A stretch of DNA of 64,000 nucleotides from Deltaproteobacteria bacterium (GCA_016792665.1 JAEUKJ010000497.1:1490-65489); one strand, 5' to 3'. Shown: positions 43,940 through 64,000, numbered from the stretch's first letter. Notes: generated from the sequence alone by a model not told the origin. Made by a program: numbers and translations.

Positions 43940-44092
43940 GTGACCAAGCGCACGTACCAGCCCCATAATCGCAAGCGGAAGAACACCCATGGTTTCCGCG
44001 AGCGCATGTCGTCCCACGGTGGCCGCAAGGTCATCAACGCCCGCCGCAAGAAGGGGCGCAAGCGCCTGACCGTGGCGACGCCCAAGAAGTGA
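43940..44092 (+). CDS. rpmH: 50S ribosomal protein L34
   Basis: Not in the ORF track because it is under 60 aa. My own translation from GTG 43940 gives [50 protein letters not shown], with the stop at 44090..44092. Confidence 0.9.
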
Positions 44093-44131
44093 CGATCGTG
44101 CTCCCCCACGAGGTGAGCCCAGACAGCGTCG

Positions 44132-44836
44132 ATGGAGTCGACGATGTCGTCACATCCCGCGAAGGCGGCGAGCATGAGCGAACCGGCCCAAGCAGGGATG
44201 TCAGAGCCGACGGACCGCGATGAGACGAGCGCTCAGCCCGTTGCGGGTCGTGGCGATCGACTCGACGCCCTGGCCCGTGTCGCGGCCGACGTCGTCGTGG
44301 CCGGGGGGAGCCTCGTCTCTCCCCGGGTCAGCGAGTCTTTCCCCAAGGAATGCAGAATCCTGCATCGATCCGAGTTCCTCCGGATCCAGGGGCAGGGTCA
44401 CCGCATCCACGGGGCGCGCCTCATCTTCCAGTTCCTCCCTGGCCGGACGCCGCGATCGCGGCTCGGCCTCACGGTCTCGAAGAAGGTCGGCAACGCGGTC
44501 GTCCGCAATCGGATCAAGCGTTGGCTCCGCGAGGCCTTCCGACGCCATCCCGAGCTGCGACCCGACCGACCCACGCGCGGGCAGCCTTCGAAAGCCTACG
44601 ACCTCGTCATCACCGCCAAGCGTGACATCGAGGACTTCGGCTTCGCCGTCCTGCACGCCGAGGTCGTCGACGTCCTCGGACGCTATCTCGACGGTCGCTT
44701 CGATCGACGGAGAGCCGGTGGACGGGATGGCAAGGGACCTCGGGCAGAGCCCACTGGCGGCGATCGATCGGGGGCCCGAGGGGGCGGCCAGCGCGCGCCC
44801 GCGAAGTCGAATCGTCCGGGCCCTGCGCGCGATTGA
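44132..44836 (+). CDS. rnpA: ribonuclease P protein component
   Basis: The core reads [32 protein letters not shown]...[26 protein letters not shown] (RNR motif). The start is uncertain (ATGs at 44132, 44144, 44174 and 44198). The Arg/Gly-rich tail overlaps yidD. Confidence 0.8.
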
Positions 44837-45104
44837 TCGCGCCCTGGCGTGGCCGCTGCTCGCGCTGATCTTCGTCTATCGCAAGCTCATCTCGCCGGCC
44901 CTGCCTCCCGCGTGTCGCTTCTATCCCTCGTGCTCGGCCTATGCGAACGAGGCCCTCACGCGACACGGACTCTCCTACGGCGCCCCGCTCATGGCGTGGC
45001 GGCTCTGTCGATGCCACCCCTTTTCGCGCGGTGGCTTCGACCCGGTGCCCGGCTCCCCGGGCTCGACAGGCTCCGAGCCCGTCGAAGATCGCGAAGGAAA
45101 CTAG
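44727..45104 (+). CDS. yidD: membrane protein insertion efficiency factor YidD
   Basis: ATG 44727 within ORF 44220..45104. The core reads [58 protein letters not shown]. The extent of the N-terminal extension is uncertain. Confidence 0.85.
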
Positions 45105-45110
45105 ATCATC

Positions 45111-48349: not shown

Positions 48350-48492
48350 CGCCGGGGATGAACCTTCGCGAGGCGCCGTGGGAGGCCGCTCGCGAGGGTT
48401 CAGCCGCAAGGAACGAGCGAAGCGAGCGACGAGGCGCACTCAGGTGCGCCGCAGGAGGGAGCGAGCGCGTGACGCCGCGGATGAGCCCTCGC
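48346..48492. repeat. intergenic repeat element, copy B: imperfect 24-bp direct repeats flanking a ~99-bp core with a hairpin
   Basis: gtgacgccggggatgaaccttcgc (48346..48369) and gtgacgccgcggatgagccctcgc (48469..48492) match at 21/24 positions. The core holds the hairpin GGCGCAC-tcag-GTGCGCC (48433..48450) and is about 80% identical to copy A over roughly 70 bp. The element fills the gap between the convergent jag and envC-like stops. Confidence 0.75.
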
Positions 48493-48502
48493 CCGCGGCC
48501 TC

Positions 48503-49732
48503 CTAGCGGAACCAGGACATTGGGTCCATGGCGACGCCATCCTTCCGCAGCTCATGGTAGAGGCGAGGGCCGAAGAAGCTCTCGCTCTCGCCCATGATGC
48601 CGAGGGTCTCGCCGGTCTTCACCTTCGCGCCGACCTCGACCGAGATCTCGGCCAGGTGCGCGTAGATCGACGTGTAGCCCATCGTGTGGTCGAGGATGAC
48701 CACGCGGCCGAGGCCCTGGATCCACCCGGTCCACGCGACCCATCCCCAATAGATGGCGCGCACGGGGACCTTGCCGTCCTTCGGGGTCCGCGCCGGGACC
48801 AGGTGGATGCCGCGCCACATCGAGCGAATGCCCTTGTAGTTGCGCGTGCCGTAGCCACCGACCAGGTCGGGGTTCAGGATCGGCACGGCCAGCCCACCGC
48901 GCGTCTCCTCGAAGTACATGCGCTTGCGATCGGTCGGGGCCGCCGCGCTGAGCTCCTTCACCTTGGCCGCCAGCGTCTCGTCGAGCTTCTCCATCTCGGC
49001 CGCGAACGCCGCGTAGAACTCGGGCTCGTTGACGACGGCGGTCTTGACCGCGGCCTGCTCTTCCTGGTCCCACGCGATCTGCTGGCGCAGCCGCTTCATC
49101 GTCTCACGCGTCCGCGCGAGGTTGGTCGTTCGTCGCTCGAGGTCGGCCTTGGCCTTCCTCCACGCGTCGAGTGTCTCTGCATAGCGACGGATGCGCGCGC
49201 GATCGGCCTCGGCCAGAAGAGCCCGCGCCGAGCGCCGCGCCTCGAAGGTGAGGAAGCCGGTCGCATCCGTGAGCAGATCGCCCAGCGCGGGAGCGCTCAG
49301 GCTGCGACCGAGCAGCGCGAGCCGCGTACGCGTGAGGTTGCGGTCGTGCTCGAGGCCGGCCGTGCGCGCCTCGAAGCGCGTCGTCGTCGCCGCGAGGTCC
49401 AGGTCCAGGCGTTGCTCGAGTCGGGTCAACGACGTGAGCTCTTCCTCGCGCCGATGGAGGTCTTGGTCCAGGCGGTCGCGCGCCGCGAGGATCGACGCCT
49501 CGGGCCTCAAGAGACGGCGGATGTCGGCGCTTGGCGTGCGCGTCACCAGGGCCGCCGGCTCGGGCACGACCAAGGTCTCGAGGTCGGGCTCCTCGGGCTT
49601 GGCCCTGGCACCCCCACTGCCCACGGTGACCAGTGCCACCAGCGCAAGACCGCGGATCAATGCCGAAGGCCTGGCAGAGCCAGGCTGCCCTCGGCTGATC
49701 AGTGCGTGGCTCCGCCAGGCCTTGGGTGGCAT
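48503..49732 (-). CDS. EnvC-like coiled-coil protein with a degenerate LytM/M23 domain (murein hydrolase activator-like)
   Basis: ATG 49732 gives MPPKAWRSHALISRG...LALVALVTVG (signal). Long coiled-coil segments follow. The C-terminus is M23-like (VVILDHTMGYTSIYAHLAEISVEVGAKVKTGETLGIMG...GPRLYHELRKDG), but the HxH motif reads YH and the HxxxD motif is not evident. Confidence 0.75.
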   Translation of the reverse strand: MPPKAWRSHALISRGQPGSARPSALIRGLALVALVTVGSGGARAKPEEPDLETLVVPEPAALVTRTPSADIRRLLRPEASILAARDRLDQDLHRREEELTSLTRLEQRLDLDLAATTTRFEARTAGLEHDRNLTRTRLALLGRSLSAPALGDLLTDATGFLTFEARRSARALLAEADRARIRRYAETLDAWRKAKADLERRTTNLARTRETMKRLRQQIAWDQEEQAAVKTAVVNEPEFYAAFAAEMEKLDETLAAKVKELSAAAPTDRKRMYFEETRGGLAVPILNPDLVGGYGTRNYKGIRSMWRGIHLVPARTPKDGKVPVRAIYWGWVAWTGWIQGLGRVVILDHTMGYTSIYAHLAEISVEVGAKVKTGETLGIMGESESFFGPRLYHELRKDGVAMDPMSWFR

Positions 49733-49742
49733 CACGCCGACC

Positions 49743-50687
49743 TCAGCGCGCATCGCGAGCACCCTTCGCGTTGGCCTCGGCCGGCTTTCCCCGGGGTCGC
49801 AGCCCACGCCGCTCGAGCCCGCGCAGCCCGCCCAGCAACGCCAGCCCGACGCCGCCCACGACGGCCCACGCAATGTAGGGAGGCCCGAGCGGCCCTGCCC
49901 CACCGGCCCCAGGCAACAGGGTCGCCAGCCGCCCGAGAGGGCCCTCGACATACAGGCCGACCGCGATGGCCGCGGCCGCCGCCATGAGGCCGATGAGCGC
50001 CGCGTAGATCACATGGCGCGCGAACAGCCAGCGCGGCGTCGCGCCCAGCGCCAGATAGAGGTCGAGCTCGTCACGGCGGGCCAACACCGCCGCGCTCACC
50101 AGGAGGTAGATCGCGAGGACGCCGACCAGCAGCGCCATCGCCGCGAGCAAGATCCCGACGAGCCGCCCCGCCTCCCCCGCCGCGAACACGAAGCGCAGGT
50201 GCCGCACGTCGAAGGGCACGTCCAGGACACCCTGGACCTCGGCGATGCTCTTCACCTTGGCGACCAGCGTGTCGAGCTCGGCCTCGGACGCGAGCGGCCC
50301 GCGCTCGACGGTCACCTTGGCCAGCCCACCCATCGGGAAGACCTGGTCATCGAGCCCTTCCAAGAGCTCCTCGCCGAGCACCGACGCGAGCTCCCCGCGC
50401 TGGGCCTTGGGTCCCACCCACTCGACCGACCTCACGCCCGGGACGGCCGCGACGCGCGTCAGGACGTCCTTGGTCTGGGCCTCGTCGAGCGCCGGATCGA
50501 GGCTCGCGCGCAGGACCAGATCGGCCTCGAGCGCCGACACCGTCGCGTCCACCCGCCCCGAGAGCCACATCGCCAGCGCCGCCAAGACCAAGCCCGCCGC
50601 CAGGGCGAGCGCCGTCAGGACACTCGCGATGGGCCGCGCGAAGAACATCGCCAGGGCATCGCGCACATGGACCGCCAGGTGACGCAT
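49743..50687 (-). CDS. ftsX: cell division permease-like protein FtsX
   Basis: 314 aa with 4 TM helices and a periplasmic domain between TM1 and TM2. It lies immediately downstream of ftsE, with a 1-nt TGATG overlap. Confidence 0.8.
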   Translation of the reverse strand: MRHLAVHVRDALAMFFARPIASVLTALALAAGLVLAALAMWLSGRVDATVSALEADLVLRASLDPALDEAQTKDVLTRVAAVPGVRSVEWVGPKAQRGELASVLGEELLEGLDDQVFPMGGLAKVTVERGPLASEAELDTLVAKVKSIAEVQGVLDVPFDVRHLRFVFAAGEAGRLVGILLAAMALLVGVLAIYLLVSAAVLARRDELDLYLALGATPRWLFARHVIYAALIGLMAAAAAIAVGLYVEGPLGRLATLLPGAGGAGPLGPPYIAWAVVGGVGLALLGGLRGLERRGLRPRGKPAEANAKGARDAR

Positions 50688-51373
50688 CAGACGCCTCCCG
50701 CGCTGGTCGTCTCACCGTCGTCTTCGATCAGGAAGCCCTTGTTCAAGACGATGACCCGCTCCTCGAAGCGCGCCGGCAGACGCGCATCCCGAGTCGCGAT
50801 GACCACGGTCGTGCCCCGGCTCTTCAGGTCGCGCAGCATCTGCAAGATGGCGTGGGCCGCGTCCGGGTCGAGGTGGCCGGTCGGCTCGTCGGCCAGGACC
50901 AGCGACGGCTCGTGCACGATGGCGCGCGCCAGGGCCACGCGCTGTTGCTCGGCGCTCGAGAGCCAGCTCGGGTAGCTCGCCGCGTGCTTCTCCATCCCGA
51001 CGAGCTCCAGCACCTGGTCGACCCGACGCTTCGCCTGGCGCGCATCGACCCCTGAAATCTCCAATGAAACCGATATGTTATTGTGAACGCTGCGATCCGG
51101 GAGGAGGCGGATGTCCTCCCACAGACGCCCGATGCCGCGCCTCAAGAACGGGACCTGGGCGGTCTTCAGGGTCGCGAGGTTTCGGCCCGCGACGAGGATC
51201 TGCCCCTCGGTCGGTCGCAGCTCGGCCGTGACGAGGTCGAAGAGGGTGGTCTTGCCCGCGCCGGAGCGCCCCGAGAGGAAGACGAGCTCGCCCTCGTGCA
51301 CGCGCAGCGACACGTCGCGAAGCGCCTCGATCCCGCTCGGGAACCGCATGGTCAGCCGGTAGATCTGAATCAC
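50687..51373 (-). CDS. ftsE: cell division ATP-binding protein FtsE
   Basis: GTG start with AAGGAG 6 nt upstream. Walker A is GRSGAGKTTL, the ABC signature is LSSAEQQRVALARA, and Walker B is LVLADEPTGHLD. Confidence 0.88.
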   Translation of the reverse strand: MIQIYRLTMRFPSGIEALRDVSLRVHEGELVFLSGRSGAGKTTLFDLVTAELRPTEGQILVAGRNLATLKTAQVPFLRRGIGRLWEDIRLLPDRSVHNNISVSLEISGVDARQAKRRVDQVLELVGMEKHAASYPSWLSSAEQQRVALARAIVHEPSLVLADEPTGHLDPDAAHAILQMLRDLKSRGTTVVIATRDARLPARFEERVIVLNKGFLIEDDGETTSAGGV

Positions 51374-51654: not shown

Positions 51655-53001
51655 ATGAAGCTCAAGACTGGATCCCTCGCGGCCCTCGCCCTGCCGCTGG
51701 TCATGTCGACCTCCGCGTCACACGCGACCGAGGCTCGTATCGACTCGATGGGTGGCGGCGTGAAGCTCTGGACGATCGAGGACGAGTCGAACATCTTCGA
51801 CTACCCGTCGCTGCTCGTCCGCTGGGGCAACCGCGTCTACATCGACAACCTCCACCCCGGGACCGAGGGCGGCGAGCTCTTCCCGAACGGCCGCTTCGGC
51901 TTCCACTACAACCTGTCGGACGACACGGTCATCGCCTTCGTCGGCTCGCACACCAACTCGGTGACGCGTCCCGTCGGCTCGGGCTTCGTCCCGACCGGCA
52001 ACGCCTTCACCGGTGGCCAGGCCTTCTCGGTCGCCTTCCAGGCGAGCCTCGCCTCCGACGTCGGCGGCGACGTCGGTGACGGCACGGTCGGCGCGGACGC
52101 GCTCGGCTACGTCGACCAGCGCTACGGCATCCTCTTTGCGACCCAGCTCGGCGCGAAGACCCGCTTCGGCCTGAGCTTCAACGTGGCCGGCGACAACGCC
52201 GACATCGAGTCGCCCAACGTGTCGCAGGTCGACCAGGGCGCACTGCTGTTCGACATCGCGCTGGGCCTCGGCGTCGACCTCGACGGCAGCGAGCTCGAGC
52301 TCTCGGCCGGCGTCGAGTTCGGCATCCTCGAGGACTTCCGCGACGAGGCGGACGCCATCTCGGGCGTCCCGGGTGACCTCCTCGAGCACTGGTCGGGCAG
52401 CCACTTCGGCCTCCGCCTGAACGGCCGCTGGACCTTCGACTTCTTCGACCAGACCAAGATCGTCGCCTACACCCAGTTCATGCTCGGCAGCCAGAGCATC
52501 GACAAGATCAACACGGCCGCGATCCCGGCCGAGAGCGGCTCGTACAGCGGCCTCTCGTTCGCCCTCGGCGCCGACCTCCGCATCGAGCCCTTCCAGGACG
52601 TCATCGTCAGCCCGGGCTTGGGCTTCCTCATCTCGCAGCAGACCGTCGAAGGCCCCAACGTCATCGACCGCGACGCCGACCGCCTCCTCTCGCTGCCGTT
52701 CTACGGCCTCGGCGTGGACCTCAAGCTGACCGACTGGTTCCGCATGCGCTTTGGCGCCAACCAGTACGTCAACATGTTGCGCCAGTCGCAGACCTCGGGC
52801 GGCGTCACGGCGACCGTCGCGACCTCGGACGTCATCACCTCGTTCGCGTGGGGCTTCGGCCTGAACCTGCCGGTGGCCGAGTCGAACCTCGCCATCGACT
52901 TCTCGCTGAACCCGACCTTCTTCAACAACGGCCCGCACGTGCTCACGGGCAACGCGACCGGTCCGTTCGCGTTGAACGCCGGCGTGCGCTACAACTGGTG
53001 A
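51655..53001 (+). CDS. outer-membrane beta-barrel protein (porin-like, hypothetical)
   Basis: ATG 51655 follows AGGAGA and gives MKLKTGSLAALALPLVMSTSASHA (signal). The sequence shows alternating amphipathic strands rich in G/D/S/F and ends GVRYNW (aromatic C-terminus). Confidence 0.7.
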   Translation: MKLKTGSLAALALPLVMSTSASHATEARIDSMGGGVKLWTIEDESNIFDYPSLLVRWGNRVYIDNLHPGTEGGELFPNGRFGFHYNLSDDTVIAFVGSHTNSVTRPVGSGFVPTGNAFTGGQAFSVAFQASLASDVGGDVGDGTVGADALGYVDQRYGILFATQLGAKTRFGLSFNVAGDNADIESPNVSQVDQGALLFDIALGLGVDLDGSELELSAGVEFGILEDFRDEADAISGVPGDLLEHWSGSHFGLRLNGRWTFDFFDQTKIVAYTQFMLGSQSIDKINTAAIPAESGSYSGLSFALGADLRIEPFQDVIVSPGLGFLISQQTVEGPNVIDRDADRLLSLPFYGLGVDLKLTDWFRMRFGANQYVNMLRQSQTSGGVTATVATSDVITSFAWGFGLNLPVAESNLAIDFSLNPTFFNNGPHVLTGNATGPFALNAGVRYNW

Positions 53002-53086
53002 GTCGCTAGCGGCTCCCGCGAGGGAGCCCATTCGTCGTCGTTCGCACAAGGCCTGGCTTGCCGGGCTGCGGGCGAGTCCTTCGTCG

Positions 53087-53127
53087 ACCGGCGGCCGTCC
53101 TCAGGGATGGGCCGCCGGTTCGTTTTC
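53087..53127 (+). terminator. rho-independent terminator after the OMP gene
   Basis: A perfect 10-bp stem, accggcggcc (53087..53096) / ggccgccggt (53110..53119), closes a 13-nt loop and is followed by tcgttttc. Confidence 0.7.
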
Positions 53128-53292
53128 AGGGTGCGGAGTCTGAAAGCCATTCAGTCGGCCCTCCGCACTTGACTCCGGTCCCCTACGATCCTGCATCATC
53201 GGGCCGCTCGACGCCGCCCCCGCGGCGCCGGGCCCTGGGTCCCCTCCCCTCCTGGGCGCCGACCCGACGCCGTTCCCGATGCTCCCGAGGAC

Positions 53293-55440
53293 ATGATGCG
53301 CGCAGCCCGGTTTTCGACCCCGTCCCTCCTGGTGATCCAGCTCCTGGTGGTCGCGCCGGGCCTGACGCTGCTCAGCGGCTGCCCCGACGACACGCAGCCT
53401 GGCACGGACACGGTCGACACGACCGACCCGCTGCCCGACGGTCAGCAGTGCGAGGCGGGCACCGTCGTCGCCTGCATCGAGGAGCGCACCCCGAACGCGC
53501 GCTTCTGCGCGGCCGATGGGGTCTCGACCTTTGTCGACAAGTGCCCGGGCGAGGACGGCATCTGCTTCCAGGACAAGTGCATCAACGTCGACATCAACGG
53601 CGGCATCTGCCTCCCGGGTGAGGTCCAGGCCTGCGTGGCCGAGGGCGGCAAGGAAGCGCTGATCTGCAACCAGTCGCGCACCGCCTTCGTGCCGCAGATC
53701 TGCAAGGGCGACGACGGGCTCGACTCGCAGTGCCGGGACAAGGCCTGCACCACGTGCTTCCCGGGCGTCAAGAAGTGCGGCGACGAGCAGACGGTCCTCG
53801 TCTGCAAGCCCGATGGCTCGGACTACGAGGTCTTCTCGCGCTGCAACGGCAGCTCGCAGATCTGCACCGGCCAGTTCTGCGAAGAGCTGTGCGAGCGCAA
53901 CATCAAGTTCAACAGCTACATCGGCTGCGACTACTTCGCGGTCGACCTCGACAACGCCTTCGTCCCAGGCGGCAACGAGGGCTTCTTCGACGCGGCCGGC
54001 GCGCAGTTCGCGGTGGTCGTCGCCAACCCGCCGGACGCGACCCTGCCGGCCATCGTCGAGGTCAACCAGCTGGAAGGTGGCGTGGTCGAAAAGGTCCTCT
54101 TCGACAGCAAGGGCAACCCGCTGCCGACCGAGCCGCTCATGCCGGGTGAGCTTCGTACGCTGAAGCTCCCGCGCCGCGACGTGAACGGCACCACCATCGG
54201 TCCCCTGGCCTACAAGGTCAGCGCCAACGTCCCGATCATCGCCTACCAGTTCAACCCGCTCGAGAACGAGAACGTGTTCTCGAACGACGCGAGCCTGCTC
54301 CTGCCCGCCGCGCTGCTCGGCCAAGAGTACATCGTCATGACGCGCGAGCAGACCTTCAACGAGCTGCGCAGCTACATCACTGTGGTCGGCATCCTCGAGG
54401 GCGAGACCACCGTGGCGGTCACCGTGGCCGGCCCGACCCAGCCCGGCATCGCCTACGAAGGCGACCCGAACCGCCAGGCCGCGATGCCGCACATGAACCC
54501 GGGCGAGACCAAGATCTTCAAGATCAACCAGTACGACGTGCTCAACCTCGAGACCGACCGACCCGGCGCAGATCTGACCGGCACGCGCGTCGTCGCCGAC
54601 AAGCGCGTCGCGGTCTTCGGCGGGTCCGAGGCGGCCAACGCGCCGAACACCGCCCGCTGCATCAACATCGATCCGGTGACCAGCCAGGGCGTCTGCGAGT
54701 GGGACAAGAAGACCACCTGCAGGACGCTCCTCGACTGCGTGAACGCCGGCTTCAACACCTGCTGCGCCGACCACCTCGAGCAGCAGATGTTCCCGCTGAA
54801 GACCTGGGGCTCGAGCTACATCGCCTCGAAATCCTGGGACCGCGGGCTGTCGAAGGACATCTATCGCATCATCGCGGGCGCCGACAACACGCGCATCGTG
54901 CTCGTGCCGCCGCAGCCGAACGTGGTCGTCCCCATCCTGCAGCGCGGCGGCTTCTTCGAGTTCGAGAGCTCGGGCAACTTCGAGGTGCGGGCCCAGGACA
55001 AAAAGCCCATCCTCGTCGGGCAGTTCCTGGCGGCCCAGGACGCCCCCGACCCCAACGTCGGCGGCGTCGGCACGGCGGGTGATGCGGGCACCGGCGACCC
55101 GGCCTTCATGCTCCTCATCCCGCTCGAGCAGTACCGCACCGACTTCGTGGTGCTGGCCCCGGCCGAGTACGCCGCGAACTACATCAACGTCACGGTGCCC
55201 ACGGGCGCGAGCGTCCAGGTCGATGGCGAGGATATTCCGCCCGGCTTCTTCACGCTCATCGGGTCGGGAGAGTATAGCGTCTACCGCCAGCTCATCGTGC
55301 CGGGGACCCACACGATCCGTTCGAGCGAGCGGGCCGGAGTCATCGTGTACGGGTGGGACCAGTACGTGTCCTATGCCTATACCGGTGGGACCGATCTGCA
55401 GGAAATCCGCACCGAGAACCCGCTGACGCCCGGCAACTGA
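53293..55440 (+). CDS. lipoprotein with Cys-rich repeats and an IgGFc-binding-protein N-terminal-like beta-helix domain
   Basis: MMRAARFSTPSLLVIQLLVVAPGLTLLSGC (lipobox) is followed by a DT linker and about 25 Cys in 170 aa. Later motifs: YKVSANVPIIAYQFNP..NDASLLLPAALLGQEY, DLTGTRVVADKRVAVFGG, CCADHLEQQMFPLKTWG, GDPAFMLLIPLEQY and GVIVYGWDQYVSYAYTGG. Confidence 0.75.
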   Translation: MMRAARFSTPSLLVIQLLVVAPGLTLLSGCPDDTQPGTDTVDTTDPLPDGQQCEAGTVVACIEERTPNARFCAADGVSTFVDKCPGEDGICFQDKCINVDINGGICLPGEVQACVAEGGKEALICNQSRTAFVPQICKGDDGLDSQCRDKACTTCFPGVKKCGDEQTVLVCKPDGSDYEVFSRCNGSSQICTGQFCEELCERNIKFNSYIGCDYFAVDLDNAFVPGGNEGFFDAAGAQFAVVVANPPDATLPAIVEVNQLEGGVVEKVLFDSKGNPLPTEPLMPGELRTLKLPRRDVNGTTIGPLAYKVSANVPIIAYQFNPLENENVFSNDASLLLPAALLGQEYIVMTREQTFNELRSYITVVGILEGETTVAVTVAGPTQPGIAYEGDPNRQAAMPHMNPGETKIFKINQYDVLNLETDRPGADLTGTRVVADKRVAVFGGSEAANAPNTARCINIDPVTSQGVCEWDKKTTCRTLLDCVNAGFNTCCADHLEQQMFPLKTWGSSYIASKSWDRGLSKDIYRIIAGADNTRIVLVPPQPNVVVPILQRGGFFEFESSGNFEVRAQDKKPILVGQFLAAQDAPDPNVGGVGTAGDAGTGDPAFMLLIPLEQYRTDFVVLAPAEYAANYINVTVPTGASVQVDGEDIPPGFFTLIGSGEYSVYRQLIVPGTHTIRSSERAGVIVYGWDQYVSYAYTGGTDLQEIRTENPLTPGN

Positions 55441-55451
55441 GGAGACGAGGC

Positions 55452-58400
55452 ATGCATCGACATCTGAGCACGACCCGCCGCGACGCAGCCCTGGCTTTCG
55501 CGTCCCTCTTCGCGCTGTCTCTCGTCGCAGGCTGCACCGACGACGTCGGCGCGGGCGACACCGACACGGGCAGCGAGGTCAGCCCCGATGTCCCTGACAC
55601 CAGCCCACCCGACACGACCGAGGGCGATACGTCGCCCGATGGTGACACCTCGGTCCCCGAAGACACGGCGGGCCCGGTCGACACGGACCCGGGGGACACG
55701 GCGGCCGAAGCGCTGACCCTCACCCAGGTGCTCCCGGGCAAGGGCCTGACCATCGGTCTCGAGCAGGTCGAGCTCGTCGGCACGGGCTTCTTCCAGGGGA
55801 TCCAGGTCACCTTCGGCGAGAGCCTGGCCCAGGACGTGTTCGTCCTGAACTCGAAGCGCCTCATCGTGCTCACGCCGCCGCGCGGCCCAGGCCTGGTCGA
55901 TGTGCGCGTCGCCGACCCCGACAGCGGAGCCTCGGCCCTCCTCGAGGCGGGCTTCCTCTACTACTCGCCCATCGCCATCACCTCGATCGAGCCCGAGACC
56001 ACCCACATCCTCGGCGGCGAGCGCATCACCGTGCGCGGCAACGGCTTCGTGCCCGGCTCGGTGCTGCTCATCGGGCGACGCTCGGCCATCCAGACCCAGG
56101 TCCTCGACAACAACACCATCACGGCCCTGGCGCCTGCGGGCGAGAAGTCCGGCCCGGTCGACGTGCGCGTCTCGAACGCCCAGGGTGTCGGCCTCCTCGA
56201 TGATGGCCTGGTCTACGTGGACGTGCCGCGCATCGACACCGTCATCCCGCCGGTCGGTCCGGTCGCCGGTGGCACGCCGGTCGAGGTCCGCGGCCAGAGC
56301 TTCTACGAGCCCTTCACGGTGCTCATCGGCGGCAAGCCGCTCGAGAACCCGAAGCTCGTCTCCGAGACGCGCATCACCGGCACCGTCCCGGCCGGCACGG
56401 CCCAGGGGCCGGTCGACGTGATCTTGTCGACCCCGTACGGCACCGGCGCGCGCGCCCGCGGCTTCACCTACGTCACCGACCTCAGCCCGGGCAACGCCCT
56501 CGAGGTCCTCTCCCTCTCGCCGGTGACGGGCGTCGTCACGGGGGGCGAGTCGTTCACCATCGTGGCCAAGGGCCTCACCGCGGGTGCCACGGTCACCTTC
56601 GGTGGCGCGGCCGCGACCAGCGTCAACGTCAACCCGAACGGCCTCGTCATCACCGGTCAGACCCCGGCCGGAGCCGCCCCTGGTGCGGTCAACGTGACCG
56701 TGACCCTGCCCAACGGCCAGACCCAGACCCTCACCTCGGCCTTCACGTATCTCTCGCGTATCGAGATCGGCCAGGTCACCCCGGCGCGCGGTCCGGTCGC
56801 GGGCGGCACGGCCATCGAGATCACCGGCGAGGGCTTCCTGCCCGGGCTCGAGCTGCGCATCGGTGCCCTCTCGGCGGCCTCGGTGCAGGTCATGGGCTCG
56901 CAGATCATCAAGGCCGTCACGCCGCCCGGGGCCCCGGGTCTCAGCGACGTGGTGGTCATCCAGTCGGGTCGCGTCACGAAGAAGCCCGACGCCTTCACCT
57001 ACGATGCCCCGTATGCGCTCTGGGCCGTCGACCCGCCGCTCGGCGCGCAGGCGGGCGGCACGCAGGTCTCGCTCATCGGCGCGGGCTTCCCGGCCGACGC
57101 CAAGGTGAGCTTCGGGTCGCGTCAGGCGACCCACGTGCAGGTCGTCTCGCCGACCCTCATCCTGTGCAAGAGCCCGCCGGGCGACCTCGGCACGGTCTCG
57201 GTGTCCCTCGCGTCGACCACCGCGGGGCAGACCTCGCTGGCCGATTCGTTCACCTACTACGACCCGACCAGCGCCTATGGCGGGACCTGGGGCGGGAGCA
57301 TCGACAACGATGTGAACGTGACGGTGCTCAGCTCGGGCGGTGGTGCCCCGATCCCCGACGCCTTCGTCATGCTGTGGACCGACCCCCGCACCCCGTACCA
57401 GGGCTTCACCAACGAGCGCGGACAGATCACCTTCTCGGGCGTGGACCTCGCGGGTGAGCAGATGGTCTCGGCCTCGAAGCCCGGGTTCTCGCGCGCCTCG
57501 GTGGTCGAGTACAACGCGACCAACGTGACCCTCTACCTGAACCCGACCACCCCGCCCTCGCCCGGCAATCCGCCGACCATCGAGCCGGCGGTCATCCGCG
57601 GCATCGTGACCAACCTGGACAAGGCCCTGCCGATCCCGTTCGGCAAGTGCTCGAACAAGTTCGGCGCGCCGTCGCCGCTGTGCCGCACGTGCACGAGCGA
57701 CACCGACTGCGGCGCCGGGCATTGCTCGGAGCTCCCCGACCAGTTCCCCGGCGGCGAGTCAGGACGCTTCTGCACGACCGACTGCACCAGCAACGCGCAG
57801 TGCCCGAGCGACTTCATGTGCGTGCCGCTCGTCGCGGGCCAGGCCCAGCAGTGCGCGCCCAAGGCCGGCGTCATCACGGCGTTCTGCGACATCACCAACG
57901 AGTCGATCTTCAGCGACGACGTGGTGGCCGACCCCGGCATCCGCGTCGACTCCGAGGCCCGCTTCGAGATGGACCCGGGCCGCTTCGGCGAGGTCGCGGT
58001 CTACTGCACGGGCGGCGTCTACGACGCGACCTTCGGCGAGTTCACGCCGCTCGTCATGGGCGTCGAGCGCCACCTCCTGGTGCTGCCCGGTGACGAGATC
58101 GAAGTCGAGATCGAGCTCGACCATCCCCTCGGTCGCACCCAGTACGTCACACTCGATCCGGTGCCGCGCGGCCCCGAGGGTCCGAACTTCAACTACATCT
58201 TCCCCTACGTCGACCTCGGCAGCGACGGCGTCATCTTCCTCCCGACCCAGGCCGGGTTCGTCGACGGCGAGCCGTTCATCCTCGAGCACTTCCTCTCGGG
58301 TCTGACGGGCGATCTCTACGACGCCTCGTTCACGTTCCTCGGCGGCTCGTTCAGCTTCACCGACACGAACCTGCCCTACACCCTGACCCTGCACCAGAAC

Positions 58401-59633
58401 CTCACGCGCCTCGACGACGACACGATGTACTACCTCGACGCCACCGGGACCTGGAAGGCGCAGCGGACGGGCGTCACGAAGAACGTCAACGGCCTCTTCT
58501 GGGGCGGCGAGAACCTCGTCGGGGTCGGGTCCAAGGGGCTCATCGTGCGCTCGGTCGGCGACGCCTGGGCCTCGCAGGAGTCGGGTGTGCGCGAAGACCT
58601 CCGCGCGGTGCACGGCGCGGGCAGCGAGATCGTCGCGGTCGGTGACCTCGGCAACATGACCCGCTGGGACGGCTTCCGCTGGCAGCCCATCGCCTCGCCG
58701 ACCGTGTCCGATCTCCGCAGCGTCTGGCTCGCCTCGCCGACCGAAGGATGGGCTGTCGGCGCCTACGCGACCCTGCACCTCCAGAACGGCACCTGGACCG
58801 CGTTCCCGGGCGCGGCCGCGGTGCGCAACCTCTTCGGCGTCTGGGGCTTCGCGGCCAACGATGTCTGGGCGGTCGGCGCCTCGGGCACGATCCTGCGCTG
58901 GGACGGCATCGCGTGGAACAGCATCGCGTCGGGCACGAACCTCGGCCTGCGCGCGGTCTGGGGTGCGGCCCCCGATGACGTGTGGTTCGTCGGCGAGGGC
59001 GGCATCGTGCTGCGCTGGAACGGGGTCGAGGTGAAGAAGGTCTCGATCGACACGACCCAGACGCTCACCGCGATCTGGGGCAAGAGCGCCTCGGACATCA
59101 CCGTCGTCGGGCGGCGCTCGACCGCCTTCAAGTGGAACGGCGCGGTGTGGGCGAAGATCCCGCTCGGCGCGTCGGCGACCAACATCGACTTCTTCGCCAT
59201 CGGTGGCCCCGCGACCGGCACCGGCACGACGGTCATGACCGGCTCGCACGAGCTCGTCCTCGGCCCCATCCTCGCGGTCCCCGAGAAGATGAGCCCCGGC
59301 AACGGGGCCCTCATGGGCAACGACTACCGCATCTCGTGGCAGGCCCAGCCGGGCACCGACCCCCACTTCAGCTACGTCGAGGTCGCGATTCCGACGCTGT
59401 TCGGACCCGTGGCCGAGTGGACGATGATCAACGACTACGATGTGCAGTCGATCCTCTTGCCGGACTTCCCGAGCATCGAGGGCACCCCGGGTATCGACCC
59501 GGGCACGAAGTACCTCACGATCTACCGGATCTACAAAGAGGGCTTCGATATCGACAACTACTCCAATACCGACATCAACCAGTTCGGGTGGCGCTCTTGG
59601 TCCGTCAATCAGGTCATTTTCTCCAAGCTCTGA
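55452..59633 (+). CDS. giant lipoprotein (1393 aa): six IPT/TIG-like repeats, a CarboxypepD_reg-like domain, a Cys-rich module and a C-terminal beta-propeller
   Basis: ATG 55452 follows GGAGACGAGG and gives MHRHLSTTRRDAALAFASLFALSLVAGC, then a DT linker. Six repeats of about 85 aa follow the pattern I..V.P..GP.AGGT.V.I.G.GF......V.FGG........V.....I...TP....G.VDV.V (about 55720..57260). The Cys module lies at about 57640..57890. Blades such as VWAVGASGTILRWDGIAW occupy about 58480..59250. Confidence 0.8.
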   Translation: MHRHLSTTRRDAALAFASLFALSLVAGCTDDVGAGDTDTGSEVSPDVPDTSPPDTTEGDTSPDGDTSVPEDTAGPVDTDPGDTAAEALTLTQVLPGKGLTIGLEQVELVGTGFFQGIQVTFGESLAQDVFVLNSKRLIVLTPPRGPGLVDVRVADPDSGASALLEAGFLYYSPIAITSIEPETTHILGGERITVRGNGFVPGSVLLIGRRSAIQTQVLDNNTITALAPAGEKSGPVDVRVSNAQGVGLLDDGLVYVDVPRIDTVIPPVGPVAGGTPVEVRGQSFYEPFTVLIGGKPLENPKLVSETRITGTVPAGTAQGPVDVILSTPYGTGARARGFTYVTDLSPGNALEVLSLSPVTGVVTGGESFTIVAKGLTAGATVTFGGAAATSVNVNPNGLVITGQTPAGAAPGAVNVTVTLPNGQTQTLTSAFTYLSRIEIGQVTPARGPVAGGTAIEITGEGFLPGLELRIGALSAASVQVMGSQIIKAVTPPGAPGLSDVVVIQSGRVTKKPDAFTYDAPYALWAVDPPLGAQAGGTQVSLIGAGFPADAKVSFGSRQATHVQVVSPTLILCKSPPGDLGTVSVSLASTTAGQTSLADSFTYYDPTSAYGGTWGGSIDNDVNVTVLSSGGGAPIPDAFVMLWTDPRTPYQGFTNERGQITFSGVDLAGEQMVSASKPGFSRASVVEYNATNVTLYLNPTTPPSPGNPPTIEPAVIRGIVTNLDKALPIPFGKCSNKFGAPSPLCRTCTSDTDCGAGHCSELPDQFPGGESGRFCTTDCTSNAQCPSDFMCVPLVAGQAQQCAPKAGVITAFCDITNESIFSDDVVADPGIRVDSEARFEMDPGRFGEVAVYCTGGVYDATFGEFTPLVMGVERHLLVLPGDEIEVEIELDHPLGRTQYVTLDPVPRGPEGPNFNYIFPYVDLGSDGVIFLPTQAGFVDGEPFILEHFLSGLTGDLYDASFTFLGGSFSFTDTNLPYTLTLHQNLTRLDDDTMYYLDATGTWKAQRTGVTKNVNGLFWGGENLVGVGSKGLIVRSVGDAWASQESGVREDLRAVHGAGSEIVAVGDLGNMTRWDGFRWQPIASPTVSDLRSVWLASPTEGWAVGAYATLHLQNGTWTAFPGAAAVRNLFGVWGFAANDVWAVGASGTILRWDGIAWNSIASGTNLGLRAVWGAAPDDVWFVGEGGIVLRWNGVEVKKVSIDTTQTLTAIWGKSASDITVVGRRSTAFKWNGAVWAKIPLGASATNIDFFAIGGPATGTGTTVMTGSHELVLGPILAVPEKMSPGNGALMGNDYRISWQAQPGTDPHFSYVEVAIPTLFGPVAEWTMINDYDVQSILLPDFPSIEGTPGIDPGTKYLTIYRIYKEGFDIDNYSNTDINQFGWRSWSVNQVIFSKL

Positions 59634-61597
59634 CGATCCTCTCCGCGACCGCGGCGCTAGCGGGTCTCACCGCTTGCGGCAGCGAGCTCGAAGGGGCCTT
59701 CGCGACGGACACCGTCGACACGACCGACACGGTCGAGGTCTCGGACACCGACGTGCAGGACACCGACACCGTCGACACGGTCGATTCGAGCGGGGACTCC
59801 TCGCCCGACACGGCCGACGCCGACACGGTCGAGGCGGACACGCGCGACACGACGCCCGAGGTCGACACGGCCCCACCGCCCGAGTGGGAGACGGTCTCGC
59901 TGGGCGACGAAGGTCGCGTCGATGCGCTCCAGCTCGTCAGCGACACCCTCGGCTTCGCGGCCAGCGGCGGGCGCGTCCTGCGCTGGGATGGTCGCCTCTG
60001 GTCGGCGTTCGGCGACCCCTTCGACACCGACGTACGCGGCGTCTACGGCACGAGCGACCTGGTCGTCGCGGTCGGTGACGGGGGGCGCGTGGCGACGCGT
60101 CCGGCCGATGGCAGCGAGGCGTGGACCGCGATCGGCGGCGCCCCCGAGGTGCACCTGCGCGCGGTGGTCTTCCGCACGAAAGACGACATCTTTGTCGCAG
60201 GTGACAAGGCGACGGTCGCGCACTGGGACGGCGCGGCGTGGTCCACCAGGTTCACCAGCAACCTCATCAACCTGCGCGCCATGTACCTGCGCGCGGGCTC
60301 GACGGGCGACGACGGGGTCTACTCGGTCGGCTCGGGTGGGCAGCTCGTGGCCAAGGTCGGCGATGCGTGGCGCGCGACGCAGATCGCCGCCAACACCGTC
60401 ATCCTCACCGACATCCTCGGACTCCCCAACGGCACCCTCATCGCCGTCGGCAACGAGCACACCATCACGGCCAAGGGCCCGAACGACCCGACCTGGAAGG
60501 GGCAGACCACGGCCGACGAGCGCAAGCGCGACGTGGCCGGGCTCGCCCTCGGCGCCGACGGTGTCGTGCGCGCGTTCGGGTCCGCGGGCCTCGTGCTGGC
60601 TCAGTCCGGCGTGGTCTGGAACCTGGCGACGGGCGCCTCGGTGGCCGCGGGTCTCAAGGACTTCGCGGTGGCTGACGCCTCGCCGACCGGCCCGCTGGTC
60701 ATGGCGCTCGGCAAGGACGGCGGTGGCGTGCGCTTCGACGGCACCACCTGGGCCTCGCTCGCGACCTCGCCCGAGGCGACCATCACCGACTTCGCCGCGG
60801 GTGCCTCAGGCGCGATCTGGGCGACCGGCTCGCGCGGCTTCCTCGCGCGTCACGATGCCTCCGGATGGAGCAGCGTCCCGGTGCCGACCACCAACGACCT
60901 GCACTCGGTCGATGTCACGGCCGGGGGGATCGCGTGGGTCGTCGGGGCCAAGGGCACGGTCCTGCGCGTGGCCCCGGGTGAGAAGCCGGTGCTCGTCACG
61001 ACGCCCATCCCGTTGGACCTCTACGGGGTCGTCGCGGTCGGCGAGGGTGCGGTCGCGTGCGGTCGCGGCGGTACCCTCCTCGCGGTGACCGAGGCAGGCG
61101 TGGTGGTGCAGGCCTCGGGCACGACGGCCGACCTCAAGGCGATCACCAAGGGCGGTGATGGCCGCATCTGGATCTCGGGCTCGTTCGGCGCCCTCCTCCG
61201 CCTGCCCGCCGATGTCGGTGGCGTGGTCGAGGCGATCGCCAGCGGCATCGGTGGCTCGCTGAACGACCTCGCCGCGTCGTCCGACGGCGTCTACGCGGTC
61301 GGCGACAACGGCACCATCCTGCGCGCGACCGCGACCAACGTGACGGTCGAGGCCGAGTCTCCGGGCCGCTTCCTCTACGCCGTGGCGACGGGTGCGAATG
61401 GGCGCGCGGTGGCCGTCGGCTCGGGTGGGGCGCTCTTGCGCAAGACCGCCAGCGGCTGGGTCGCGGACGTCCCGACGGAAACGGGCGCCACCTTCGAGGC
61501 GGTCTATCTCGCGGCCGACGGCAGCGTCGCCATCGCGGGTGGCATCTATCGCGTCTCGCACGTCGAGACGCGCCTCACGCCGGTGGAGGCCCCATGA
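59588..61597 (+). CDS. lipoprotein with about 14 beta-propeller blades (Ycf48/BNR-like repeat pattern)
   Basis: This is the frame of ORF 58982..61597. The start is GTG 59588 or TTG 59597, giving (M)ALLVRQSGHFLQALTILSATAALAGLTAC (lipobox) and overlapping the upstream gene end (59633). A DT linker follows. I counted 14 xGxxGxhhxh blades (ASGGRVLRWDG, VGDGGRVATR, ... VGSGGALLRK). Confidence 0.7.
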   Translation: MALLVRQSGHFLQALTILSATAALAGLTACGSELEGAFATDTVDTTDTVEVSDTDVQDTDTVDTVDSSGDSSPDTADADTVEADTRDTTPEVDTAPPPEWETVSLGDEGRVDALQLVSDTLGFAASGGRVLRWDGRLWSAFGDPFDTDVRGVYGTSDLVVAVGDGGRVATRPADGSEAWTAIGGAPEVHLRAVVFRTKDDIFVAGDKATVAHWDGAAWSTRFTSNLINLRAMYLRAGSTGDDGVYSVGSGGQLVAKVGDAWRATQIAANTVILTDILGLPNGTLIAVGNEHTITAKGPNDPTWKGQTTADERKRDVAGLALGADGVVRAFGSAGLVLAQSGVVWNLATGASVAAGLKDFAVADASPTGPLVMALGKDGGGVRFDGTTWASLATSPEATITDFAAGASGAIWATGSRGFLARHDASGWSSVPVPTTNDLHSVDVTAGGIAWVVGAKGTVLRVAPGEKPVLVTTPIPLDLYGVVAVGEGAVACGRGGTLLAVTEAGVVVQASGTTADLKAITKGGDGRIWISGSFGALLRLPADVGGVVEAIASGIGGSLNDLAASSDGVYAVGDNGTILRATATNVTVEAESPGRFLYAVATGANGRAVAVGSGGALLRKTASGWVADVPTETGATFEAVYLAADGSVAIAGGIYRVSHVETRLTPVEAP

Positions 61598-64000
61598 GAC
61601 TCCTCGCTCTCACGTCTCTCGTCGTGCTCGCCGTCGGAGGGGGCGGCTGCCCCGAGGACGCCAAGCCGAGCGACGACACCTCGGTCGATACCGACACGGG
61701 CGCGCCCGACACCGACCTGGTCGACGATACCGACGAGGTCGAGGACGTCGACACGACTGCCCCGGACGAGGTAGACAGCGCCGACGTCGAGGACACGGGC
61801 CCGGACAGCGCGGACACCGTCGATACAATCGACCCTGACGCCCCGGATCTCACCGAGCCTGGGACCTTCACGGTCGGCGAGGCGAACCTGCCGCAGGAGT
61901 ACGTCTTCAAGTCCGTGTGGGCGGGCGAGACGGGCCGCGTGGTCGCGGTCGGCAACGATGGCATCGTGGCCACGCAGGAGCTCGATGGGTCGTGGCGCGT
62001 CCTCGCGCGGGCCGAGGGCGCCGACCTCTTGAACGCGGCGCACGGCTTCGACGGACAGAACCTGTGGGCGGTCGGACGTGCCGGCGCGATCTTGCGTGGG
62101 ACGGTCGATTCCTTCGGTGAATCAGGGGCTTGCCAGGTCGATGGCGACTGCCAGGACGGCGACTCCTGCACGGTCGATCGCTGCGTCGACAACGTGTGCG
62201 TGGCCGAGTCCACGCAGAGCTCGGGCTGCTGCGGGTGGACGCCCGGCTCGTGGAACTTCGACACCGGCACGCTGCAGTCGTGGGTGAACCAGGCGGCCCA
62301 GCAGATCGGCCCTTGGGGCTGGCAGGTCGTCTCGCGGCCGAACCGCAGCACCAGCGGGTCGTTTGCGCTCTGGTTCGGCAACCCCAACCTCGGGACCTAT
62401 GGGGGCGGCGTGCCGTTGGCGGCCACCATCCAGAGCCCGAACATCCGCCTGCCGCCGACCGGCACCGCGACCCTGAAGTTCAACGTGTACCTCGATGCCG
62501 AGCCCGACACGAGCTTCGACATCCTGGAGATCAGCGTGCAGAGCGGGGTCGAGCGCACCGAGGTGTGGCACAAGCGCAACCTCTCGAAGGTCCCGACCAA
62601 CGGCTTCGTCCCGGTCGAGGTCAACCTCACGCCGTGGCGCGGCAAGGTCATCCAGCTGCGCGTGCGCTTCGACTCGATCGACGAGACCGTCAACGACTTC
62701 GAGGGTCCCTATATCGACGACCTCCGCGTCGAGACCGCGTGCGTCGCGGGCGGGACTGGGTCCTTGCTCAACGGGCCGACCCTCTGGGGGGTCTATGGCC
62801 TCTCGAAGAACCTCGCGTTCGCGGTCGGCCGCGGCGGGGCCATCCTGCAGTTCGACGGCAGCACCTGGGCGCCGAGCAAGGGCGCCGACGAGAGCGCGGT
62901 GTGGAACGGCATGAGTGGCTTTGGCACGACGCTGTCGCTGGTCGGCAACAACGGCCAGGCCATCGTCGCGCGCGGGGCCGGGATCGAGACGGTCAACACC
63001 GGCACGAGCAACAACCTCCAGTCGGTCTTCACCCCAGACGGCATCCAGTTCTTCGCCGTGGGCGACCTCGGGACCCTCTTGCAGGGCACCGGGGTGGCCT
63101 GGACGCTGGCCGACCTCGGCCTCGCGGTGAGCATGCGTGCGGTGCATGGCGTGCGTGCCGACGATGTCTATGCGGTCGGCTACCAGGGCACCATCGTGCA
63201 CTGGAACGGCAGTGCGTGGCGCCTCCTGACGAGCCCGACCTCGGCCAACCTGTTGGGGGTCTGGGTCGACACGGCGGGCAAGGTGACGATCGTCGGGCAG
63301 GACGGAAAGATCTTCGAGGGCGACAAGGACCTGGGCTTCACCGAGGTCGCGATGCTCAACCAGGGCGGCGAGCTGACCAAGGTCTGGGGCATGCCGGACG
63401 GTTCGTTCATGGTTGCGGCCGGGACCCAGGGCAAGCTCGTCCAGCGCGTGGCCGGGGTCTGGTCGCCGATGACGTCCATCACGTCGCAGGCGCTCTCGGG
63501 CGTGTGGGGCACGTCGCCGACGGACGTCTGGGCCGTGGGTCGCAGCGGGCTCGCGTTGCGCTGGGACGGCACGCTGTGGAAGCGCGTCGTGACGCCGGTG
63601 ACCTCGCCGCTCACGACCGTGTGGGGTGACGCGGCCAACCGCTACTACGCGGCTGGCAGCGCGGGGGCCCTGCTCACGTGGAACGGCGAGGCCTGGGCGA
63701 GTGTCGCGTCGGGCACGACCGAGAACCTGCGCGCCGTCTTCGGACGCTCGGGGACCGACGTGTGGACGGTGGGCGCCAATGGCACGATCCTGCACTACAA
63801 CGGGCTTGGCTGGGGCAAGGTGAAGGTCGAGGGGATCCCCAACGCCGACGGCGGCACCGACCCCATCAAGGACGAGCTGCTCGCGGTCTGGATGGCCTCG
63901 GACAAAGACGGCTGGGCCGTCGGCGACAACGGCCGGATCCTGCGCTGGGACGGCCTCCAGTGGAACATCGTCGAGACCGACTGGAAGACCGCGTTGCGCG
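61594..64000 (+). CDS. lipoprotein with at least 12 propeller blades interrupted by a Cys knot and a jelly-roll (MAM / choice-of-anchor-like) insert; 3' end beyond the right edge
   Basis: Not in the ORF track because there is no stop in the window. My own translation from ATG 61594 (ATGA overlap with the upstream stop) gives MRLLALTSLVVLAVGGGGC, a DT linker, and then blades. The insert runs CQVDGDCQDGDSCTVDRCVDNVCV...SGCCGWTPGSWNFDTGTLQSWV...FDILEISVQSG...LRVRFDSIDETVNDFEGPYIDDLRVE. More blades follow (VGRSGLALRWDGTLW, VGDNGRILRWDGLQW) up to position 64000. Confidence 0.75.
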   Translation, partial: MRLLALTSLVVLAVGGGGCPEDAKPSDDTSVDTDTGAPDTDLVDDTDEVEDVDTTAPDEVDSADVEDTGPDSADTVDTIDPDAPDLTEPGTFTVGEANLPQEYVFKSVWAGETGRVVAVGNDGIVATQELDGSWRVLARAEGADLLNAAHGFDGQNLWAVGRAGAILRGTVDSFGESGACQVDGDCQDGDSCTVDRCVDNVCVAESTQSSGCCGWTPGSWNFDTGTLQSWVNQAAQQIGPWGWQVVSRPNRSTSGSFALWFGNPNLGTYGGGVPLAATIQSPNIRLPPTGTATLKFNVYLDAEPDTSFDILEISVQSGVERTEVWHKRNLSKVPTNGFVPVEVNLTPWRGKVIQLRVRFDSIDETVNDFEGPYIDDLRVETACVAGGTGSLLNGPTLWGVYGLSKNLAFAVGRGGAILQFDGSTWAPSKGADESAVWNGMSGFGTTLSLVGNNGQAIVARGAGIETVNTGTSNNLQSVFTPDGIQFFAVGDLGTLLQGTGVAWTLADLGLAVSMRAVHGVRADDVYAVGYQGTIVHWNGSAWRLLTSPTSANLLGVWVDTAGKVTIVGQDGKIFEGDKDLGFTEVAMLNQGGELTKVWGMPDGSFMVAAGTQGKLVQRVAGVWSPMTSITSQALSGVWGTSPTDVWAVGRSGLALRWDGTLWKRVVTPVTSPLTTVWGDAANRYYAAGSAGALLTWNGEAWASVASGTTENLRAVFGRSGTDVWTVGANGTILHYNGLGWGKVKVEGIPNADGGTDPIKDELLAVWMASDKDGWAVGDNGRILRWDGLQWNIVETDWKTALR

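Follow-up and report, generated by a model that had tools for sequence, protein, structure and literature searches.

The 64,000-nucleotide stretch analysed here in full (the window; Deltaproteobacteria bacterium, GCA_016792665.1 JAEUKJ010000497.1:1490-65489) has a GC content of ~70% and ends in a gene for a predicted outer-membrane protein (OMP) followed by four genes, G1 to G4, for large predicted lipoproteins. The G1-G4 cassette is real, conserved and uncharacterised, and is built from known domain types. The four genes occupy the coordinates proposed for them in a preliminary description of the window, and their coding frames are recognised by third-position GC content, which lies at 0.81-0.95 in real genes. 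Full-length G4 was read from L093 (loci are designated by L numbers), a contig 99.3% identical to the window. Domain matches are judged by the Pfam gathering cut-offs (25.6 bits for IgGFc_binding, 20.9 for TIG, 32.3 for CarboxypepD_reg and 27 for PSII_BNR); blades were counted with a blade hidden Markov model (HMM) and, for G3, also in an AlphaFold2 (AF2) model, with confidence given as the predicted local distance difference test (pLDDT). The features are as follows.

51655..53001, + strand: OMP, 448-aa predicted outer-membrane beta-barrel (NCBI MBL8786844.1, 'hypothetical protein', identical product)
53011..53128, + strand: three GC-rich hairpins 3' of the OMP stop codon, the last at 53085-53122 and followed by UUCGUUUUC
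53293..55440, + strand: G1, 715-aa predicted lipoprotein (MBL8786845.1, 'IgGFc-binding protein', identical product)
G1 residues ~53-200, + strand: Cys-rich repeats (AF2 pLDDT ~90)
54286-55353, + strand: IgGFc_binding domain, G1 residues 332-687 (PF17517, E=3.6e-60)
55452..59633, + strand: G2, 1393-aa predicted lipoprotein (MBL8786846.1, 'IPT/TIG domain-containing protein', identical product)
~55713-57281, + strand: six IPT/TIG domains of G2 (Pfam PF01833, six stretches, E=6e-53)
57312-57509, + strand: CarboxypepD_reg-like domain of G2 (E=6e-7)
~57648-57887, + strand: Cys module of G2
Between the Cys module and the propeller, + strand: beta region of G2
~58449-59261, + strand: propeller of G2 with roughly 7 blades (6 by the blade HMM)
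59274-59630, + strand: C-terminal domain of G2
59588..61597, + strand: G3, 669-aa predicted lipoprotein with a GTG start (equals P0121 over its full length)
59879-61573, + strand: two 7-bladed beta-propellers of G3 (AF2, 14 blades)
61594..64000 and past the window end, + strand: G4, predicted lipoprotein, 802 of 865 aa inside the window, start overlapping in ATGA
62116-62748, + strand: Cys knot and MAM-like jelly-roll insert of G4, residues 175-385, after blade 2 and before 12 more
~64318-64977 by equivalence, past the window end, + strand: 219-aa MYXO-CTERM-like protein directly after G4 (L093:10080-10739)

The four genes are closely packed. The 11-nt gap between G1 and G2 (with GGAG 5' of the ATG) and the ATGA shared by G3 and G4 at 61594-61597 are both present as first described, and G2 and G3 overlap by 46 nt. 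Together the genes amount to 715+1393+669+865 = 3642 codons, in agreement with the initial figure of more than 3,600, and a terminator scan finds no terminator-like site on the + strand within 53293-64000. From gene spacing only, we infer that G1-G4 are co-transcribed as one operon. The OMP gene had been credited with a terminator of its own. The hairpins behind it are indeed stable (RNA fold of -72.3 kcal/mol, z=-3.2 against shuffles), and the final one is trailed by a short run with four U only; the element is terminator-like, although a consensus terminator scan left it unflagged. No Rfam element (riboswitch or small RNA) is matched in the OMP-G1 spacer or the rest of the window. A single consensus match to a sigma-70 promoter lies inside G4 and is regarded as not meaningful.

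All four products share one design at their N-termini, namely the signal peptide, lipobox Cys and acidic Asp/Thr linker noted at the outset. The lipoboxes read LSGC in G1, VAGC in G2, LTAC in G3 and GGGC in G4; the first three match the pattern [LVI][ASTVI][GAS]C, from which the atypical G4 box deviates. Each lipobox is followed by a linker rich in Asp, Thr and Pro. This linker is short in G1, where it follows the lipobox residue Cys30, and roughly 65-90 residues long in the other proteins (~90 in G2, ~65 in G3). A crude regular expression (hydrophobic stretch plus Cys) recovers the anchor and low-complexity linker in 95 of 108 orthologues from 27 syntenic loci, across all four families. G1-G4 are accordingly predicted to be lipoproteins, substrates of Lgt and LspA. 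The linkers of G3 (59678-59881) and G4 (61651-61869) are dense in D-[ST]-[AILVMT] triplets, of which that of G3 holds 9 against 2.2 expected from shuffles; the pattern is less regular in the linkers of distant orthologues. D-[ST]-[AILVMT] is the general O-glycosylation motif of Bacteroidota.

To collect relatives, one genome per GTDB species was scanned with a G1 alignment, and the best 80 loci were kept and compared by tblastn with all six window proteins. Among these loci, the order G1-G2-G3-G4 with tight junctions recurs in ~30 species-level metagenome-assembled genomes (MAGs) of Myxococcota; the genes are thus not scattered singletons, and the expectation of conserved synteny is borne out. 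The cassette is single-copy per genome, each locus coming from a different assembly, and G1 identity among full cassettes ranges from ~38% to 80%. The genes around the cassette are less constant: FtsEX-EnvC and dnaA-yidC in the window and its close relatives, rpsP/KH or an acyltransferase in other clades. FtsEX adjacency is not conserved across clades. Since the neighbours change, the cassette itself appears as the conserved unit. Record titles of 'Enterobacteriaceae' or 'Klebsiella pneumoniae' at L021, L033, L044, L055, L071 and L077 are almost certainly wrong for a high-GC myxobacterial cassette.

Some loci carry a reduced set of genes. G3 is missing in L007 and L036, where G4 directly follows G2, and G2 is missing in L014, L024 and L039, which have G1 and one double propeller; the four proteins are therefore not an indivisible unit. 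At ~17 loci G1 is accompanied by a ~990-aa TIG protein without a propeller, and the remaining loci (L002 and L003, for example) have G1 alone. By the occurrence of these variants, the pair of G1 and a TIG protein looks like an older core and the propeller-rich cassette like a later elaboration. A divergent, PEGA-containing Ser/Thr kinase is encoded next to the G1-TIG modules of L038, L052, L045 and L032 (labelled Bradymonadia or Myxococcales; G1 at 10001 in each), and their downstream neighbour is an SDF symporter or, at L032, a pair of CsgG-like lipoproteins. A further + strand gene follows G4 in 13-15 distant cassettes. Its product again has a lipobox and an acidic linker, as well as a region that weakly resembles Big_1 (L021:20695-21618, L026:20569-21822, L060:20976-21986; cut by the locus ends), and is unrelated to the MYXO-CTERM protein.

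The members of the cassette differ in their rates of evolution. G1 is conserved about as well as the FtsE ATPase, matching or exceeding it: identities of G1 and FtsE are 76% and 68% to L001, 64% and 60% to L007, and 51% and 53% to L011. YidC (~40%), EnvC (~40%) and FtsX (~25%) all fall far below G1. Where FtsE is retained at 58-65% identity, the values are 47-56% for G2, 30-48% for G4 and 25-39% for G3, which places G2 above YidC, EnvC and FtsX as well. That G1 and G2 change so slowly speaks against an adhesin of the variable kind and points to a ligand or partner that is itself conserved.

G1 was initially described as a combination of Cys-rich repeats with an IgGFc-binding-like beta-helix. 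The repeats and the domain both stand: the PF17517 match reaches 204.2 bits and spans model positions 1-297 of 297, and IgGFc_binding is matched in 26 of 26 aligned homologues. The beta-helix label is not upheld, given a moderate AF2 model of the whole protein (pLDDT 71.6) and a fold search of the PDB that returned nothing beyond weak cupin or jelly-roll look-alikes (best E=2e-3, template modelling score at most 0.12). Comparison of the model with viral models (BFVD) gave nothing useful, and PDB searches with the single G1 sequence and with a G1 profile gave no match. As the fold searches gave no relative, no enzyme class is assignable. The G1 family is large, with 5,104 representative clusters at E<=1e-3 and 787 at E<=1e-30, and close relatives are numerous in uncultured Myxococcota. 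The role of the IgGFc_binding domain is unclear, and it occurs in gliding bacteria (PMC11796319); a search of the literature for bacterial IgGFc-binding domain proteins, PF17517 or this domain combination found nothing relevant.

Conservation within G1 is concentrated in particular residues. Across 79 homologues, 86 positions are at least 97% conserved, including 16 Cys and clusters of D, N, S, H, E and R, and the near-invariant residues include S330-N331-D332, S445-E446, D493-H494-E496 and D602-P603. The invariant polar residues look like a fixed binding or catalytic site. The best-conserved loops (residues 322-333, 447-452, 489-495 and 581-604; NPLENENVFSNDAS, AANAPN, TCCADHL and the DAGTGDPA region) coincide with AF2 pLDDT values below 50, and may need a partner, metal or ligand for their ordering.

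All the modules first ascribed to G2 (six IPT/TIG-like repeats, a CarboxypepD_reg-like fold, a Cys module and about 7 blades) are found, with 6 blades by the blade HMM. They run in the order acidic linker, six TIG domains, CarboxypepD_reg-like domain, Cys module, beta region, propeller and C-terminal domain. The TIG domains total 177 bits and match the IPT domains of plexin-A1 and MET in the PDB (E=1.6e-8 to 1e-4); the CarboxypepD_reg match, at 30.1 bits, is slightly below its cut-off. G2 also matches the NCBIfam choice-of-anchor Z repeat (E=9.5e-26). Conservation is uneven along the protein. Residues 601-700 (57252-57551), which cover the CarboxypepD_reg-like segment, show ~65% identity across 24 orthologues, as against mostly 33-44% in the rest and ~50% in the first TIG domain, residues 451-500 and the C-terminal end. 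The CarboxypepD_reg-like segment, the best conserved of G2, is a candidate docking module.

G3 and G4 are made up chiefly of propellers. The AF2 model of G3 is confident (pLDDT 88.5 overall, above 95 at residues 95-669; residues 1-81, signal peptide included, are disordered) and contains 14 four-stranded blades, in agreement with the earlier estimate of two 7-bladed propellers. Its top Foldseek matches are tandem 7-blade propellers, among them Aip1, Pwp2, Gemin5 and the glycan sensor BT4663. A G3 profile matches Ycf48-like PDB chains over a whole propeller (residues 90-374, E ~1e-11); single-sequence PDB searches with G3 and G4 gave no match, and one G3 orthologue has a precomputed Reg_prop match. 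G4 had been described as at least 12 blades split by a Cys knot and a jelly-roll and continuing past the window; its full length of 865 aa holds 14 blades by the HMM, 2 before and 12 after an insert whose MAM-like match is weak (E=2.7e-4). The HMM detects 6 blades in G2, 12 in G3 and 14 in G4, 32 in all, where ~35 are estimated. The propellers of the three proteins are paralogues. G3 has few conserved polar residues, conserved acidic pairs are absent from the propellers, and their features fit a scaffold-like role. The expected folds are thus recovered, the propellers by structure prediction and IPT/TIG by Pfam.

The protein encoded upstream of G1 has a signal peptide and a C-terminal ...RYNW. 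OMP itself has no Pfam match, but 5 of 12 orthologues weakly match OMP_b-brl. An OMP profile retrieves 52 clusters among 5.8 billion, all unnamed, and a metagenome scan with a 7-sequence OMP alignment yields only 6 close loci. PDB searches gave no match with the single sequence and, with the profile at E<=10, only a chance match to an Ig-domain protein (E=1). A relationship to PopA is not adopted: the match to the PopA porin-like NF053618 is sub-threshold (23.3 bits against a cut-off of 150), is confined to the N-terminal 100 residues and has no support from the PDB profile search. The preliminary description placed OMP directly upstream of the cassette as a possible partner, and the adjacency turns out stronger than it assumed. 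At every informative locus carrying an OMP homologue, the homologue lies directly upstream of G1, also for members of 25% and 38% identity and where FtsE no longer adjoins; L010 and L094 have two tandem copies in this place. The link does not run in both directions, however. Most distant cassettes are without an adjacent OMP, which is thus not obligatory in cis. OMP is thus specific to the cassette, yet not universal beside it.

Further evidence on location comes from the 219-aa protein encoded directly after G4 in L093. A signal peptide, a pair of six-Cys modules and an acidic linker are recognised in it, and its tail, GGGGGGC-TSAPSPLWLGALGLLFL-RRRRLS, has by inspection the tripartite MYXO-CTERM form, although the HMM match is not significant. 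MYXO-CTERM, in which a motif containing Cys is followed by a hydrophobic helix and an end rich in Arg, directs proteins to the surface of myxobacterial cells (PMC11980579). In L007, L011 and L019, homologues with similar tails adjoin G4 from the opposite strand, which makes four lineages together with L093; no homologue is present in L001, L004, L006, L008 and L082. Similarity of the 219-aa protein to the Cys repeats of G1 is not significant. The TIG arrays, the choice-of-anchor-type repeat, the disulfide modules, the MAM-like insert, the long linkers and the MYXO-CTERM neighbour favour a surface location, and G1-G4 are probably surface-exposed.

Our preferred interpretation, held tentatively and at a little less than an even chance, is that the cassette encodes a binding complex tethered to the outer membrane, probably exposed at the surface, for a conserved ligand. 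The four lipoproteins, on long flexible acidic linkers, would jointly form a complex of the cell envelope, most likely one displayed at the surface. G1 would be the slowly evolving core, a disulfide-locked stalk of Cys repeats bearing an IgGFc_binding-type domain with a fixed binding or catalytic site. G2 would contribute a stalk of six IPT/TIG domains, the candidate docking module and a terminal 7-blade propeller, and G3 and G4 two Ycf48-like 7-blade propellers each as broad binding platforms, with the jelly-roll insert added in G4. OMP, where present, would be a dedicated partner serving as an anchor or as a route for the lipoproteins to the surface. The ligand would be extracellular and conserved, for example a glycan, a polymer or some other conserved structure of the envelope or surface; a variable target seems unlikely. 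Gene structure, lipoprotein signals, domain folds, synteny, evolutionary rates and the adjacency of OMP are shown by the data, whereas we infer that the proteins associate physically and are exposed at the surface, what they bind and what OMP does. The idea first put forward, a recognition or adhesion assembly, keeps its surface features and its link to OMP, but a function in adhesion or prey recognition stays hypothetical, and the pattern of rates does not fit a fast-evolving adhesin; it fits a fixed site in G1 and propellers that serve as scaffolds.

Several observations weigh against a surface complex of this kind. The best-conserved loops of G1 are those that AF2 models with least confidence, some lineages drop G3 or G2, and most distant cassettes lack an adjacent OMP. 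Among solved structures the propellers are closest to Ycf48, whose place of action is the lumenal side of the membrane, the equivalent of the periplasm. Conservation at housekeeping level beside FtsEX/YidC or ribosomal neighbours would also fit an internal envelope function. The most serious alternative, if rather unlikely, is a periplasmic complex for envelope maintenance or assembly. Its lipoproteins would be anchored in the outer membrane's inner leaflet or in the inner membrane, and their propellers and the G1 domain would be a chaperone or scaffold for a conserved envelope component, in the manner of Ycf48, BamB, TolB or Lpo. Propellers that are Ycf48-like by profile search suit such a role, as does a single-copy cassette evolving as slowly as housekeeping genes in a phylum without a defined export signal for surface lipoproteins. 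The housekeeping neighbours (FtsEX-EnvC and YidC here, rpsP/KH elsewhere) point the same way, but they differ by clade, and that of FtsEX is not a conserved adjacency. Six TIG domains, a ~90-residue linker and ~35 blades would moreover be very large for the periplasm, extracellular proteins are the usual carriers of TIG, choice-of-anchor-type, MAM-like and Cys-rich modules, and a MYXO-CTERM protein is the neighbour in several lineages.

A second alternative, which we consider doubtful, is extracellular polymer processing by an enzymatic G1. A polysaccharide or other polymer would be captured and presented by the TIG and propeller proteins, and OMP would take up the products. The 86 near-invariant positions of G1, with the polar residues listed above, would be expected of an enzyme, but its fold is unmatched to any hydrolase or lyase, and no catalytic family is found in OMP or G1-G4 by Pfam, NCBIfam or PDB. 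The tandem propellers of BT4663 bind glycans, and many glycan-active proteins carry CarboxypepD_reg-like and jelly-roll modules; the propellers here, however, are without conserved acidic pairs, and the locus is without a TonB-dependent receptor, SusD, ABC importer or regulator. That the four are paralogous or unrelated secreted lipoproteins with no joint function, adjacent by shared regulation or history, is very unlikely: G1 does occur alone or with a short TIG protein in many genomes, a few cassettes lack G3 or G2, and the propellers of G2, G3 and G4 are paralogous, but order and tight spacing are kept in ~30 genomes at ~38-80% G1 identity and in unrelated neighbourhoods, start and stop codons overlap, and one anchor-and-linker design runs through all four proteins.

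A more ambitious form of the preferred reading, a surface-exposed binding complex, is improbable in our estimation. It would make the cassette an undescribed surface machine of uncultured aquatic Myxococcota, in which a new barrel family, confined to this locus, exports to the surface or docks the four giant lipoproteins, and ~35 blades together with the invariant G1 site form a capture or contact apparatus of fixed specificity. Its uses might be, for example, contact with prey or polymer, or surface movement, and the DT-rich linkers might be glycosylated, mucin-like tethers.

If the preferred interpretation holds true, a large clade of uncultured Myxococcota spends ~3,600 codons on an undescribed single-copy envelope complex under housekeeping-level selection. 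This would provide the first functional context for bacterial IgGFc_binding, a domain with ~5,100 representative clusters and no solved structure, and a context for non-photosynthetic Ycf48-like propellers; it would also define a new OMP family and bear on how lipoproteins arrive and work at the surface in Myxococcota. In practical terms, the cassette gives structural and genetic studies a well-defined set of targets and a list of invariant residues.

As for the rest of the window, the cassette is placed in a replication-origin neighbourhood (38995-51373), with a recF-like gene and dnaN (both - strand; 40309-41550), dnaA (+ strand, 42357-43781), yidC (45105-47312) and, on the - strand, genes for an EnvC-like M23 peptidase, FtsX and FtsE. 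GC content dips to 0.645 at 40001-42000; the frequency of DnaA boxes in the window is no higher than chance. Other large envelope or secreted proteins are encoded on the - strand: a bacterial alpha-2-macroglobulin at 3-4772, running off the window start, a further CarboxypepD_reg-like protein at 9047-10528 and an FG-GAP/ASPIC protein at 18199-20283.

We found no characterised locus, solved structure or paper matching the cassette, and the resemblances to known systems are partial. The closest solved propeller relative is Ycf48/HCF136 (PDB 2xbg, 5ojp), likewise a lipoprotein whose propeller is a binding platform and to which the G3 profile aligns at E ~1e-11. The propellers of G3 and G4 are in tandem, however, that of G2 is fused to a TIG stalk, and the host is without a photosystem. 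PSII_BNR scores 16.4 against the required 27 bits and PRK13684 16 against 326, and there are no photosystem genes in the window. The propellers of G2-G4 are superfamily relatives of Ycf48, not orthologues. BT4663 (PDB 4a2m), a glycan-binding bacterial pair of 7-bladed propellers among the fold matches of G3, belongs to a hybrid two-component kinase, of which it forms the periplasmic portion, whereas G3 is without a signalling domain and shares ~10% identity with it.

Two further likenesses are to animal proteins. The N-terminal domain of FCGBP (PF17517) is matched as a full model by G1 residues 332-687; G1 differs in adding a lipid anchor and Cys-rich repeats and in being without vWD domains. 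G2 shares with the ectodomains of plexin and MET a propeller, a Cys-rich (PSI) module and an IPT stalk, but in reversed order (IPT first, propeller last), with a Ycf48-like rather than a Sema propeller and no transmembrane or cytoplasmic part; the resemblance is one of building blocks only.

Among bacterial surface systems, TraA/TraB of Myxococcus xanthus likewise places the gene of a Cys-repeat protein beside that of an outer-membrane protein, and some cassettes adjoin a MYXO-CTERM protein. TraA, however, is polymorphic, with a PA14-like variable domain and a MYXO-CTERM anchor, whereas G1 is extremely conserved and has a lipobox anchor and IgGFc_binding; Pfam and NCBIfam give no PA14 or OmpA match at the locus, and a MYXO-CTERM-like tail is seen only in the small protein downstream of G4. 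For Glt/Agl, the same scans find no TPR, VWA or named Glt family; Glt sequences were not compared directly. Sus-like systems of Bacteroidota and BtuB-BtuG, in which BtuG is a lipoprotein with a 7-blade propeller (PMC10404256), also encode propeller or Ig-like lipoproteins beside a barrel. The OMP here is an unrelated barrel of ~450 aa from another phylum, and OMP, G1-G4 and the neighbouring genes include none of the Sus-type import or regulatory components named above. Judged by its domain content, the locus is neither a Sus-like polysaccharide utilisation locus nor TraAB, nor can a motility cluster of the Glt type be recognised in it. It does share with the Bacteroidota complexes an arrangement in which the lipoproteins presumably cap the barrel or work with it.

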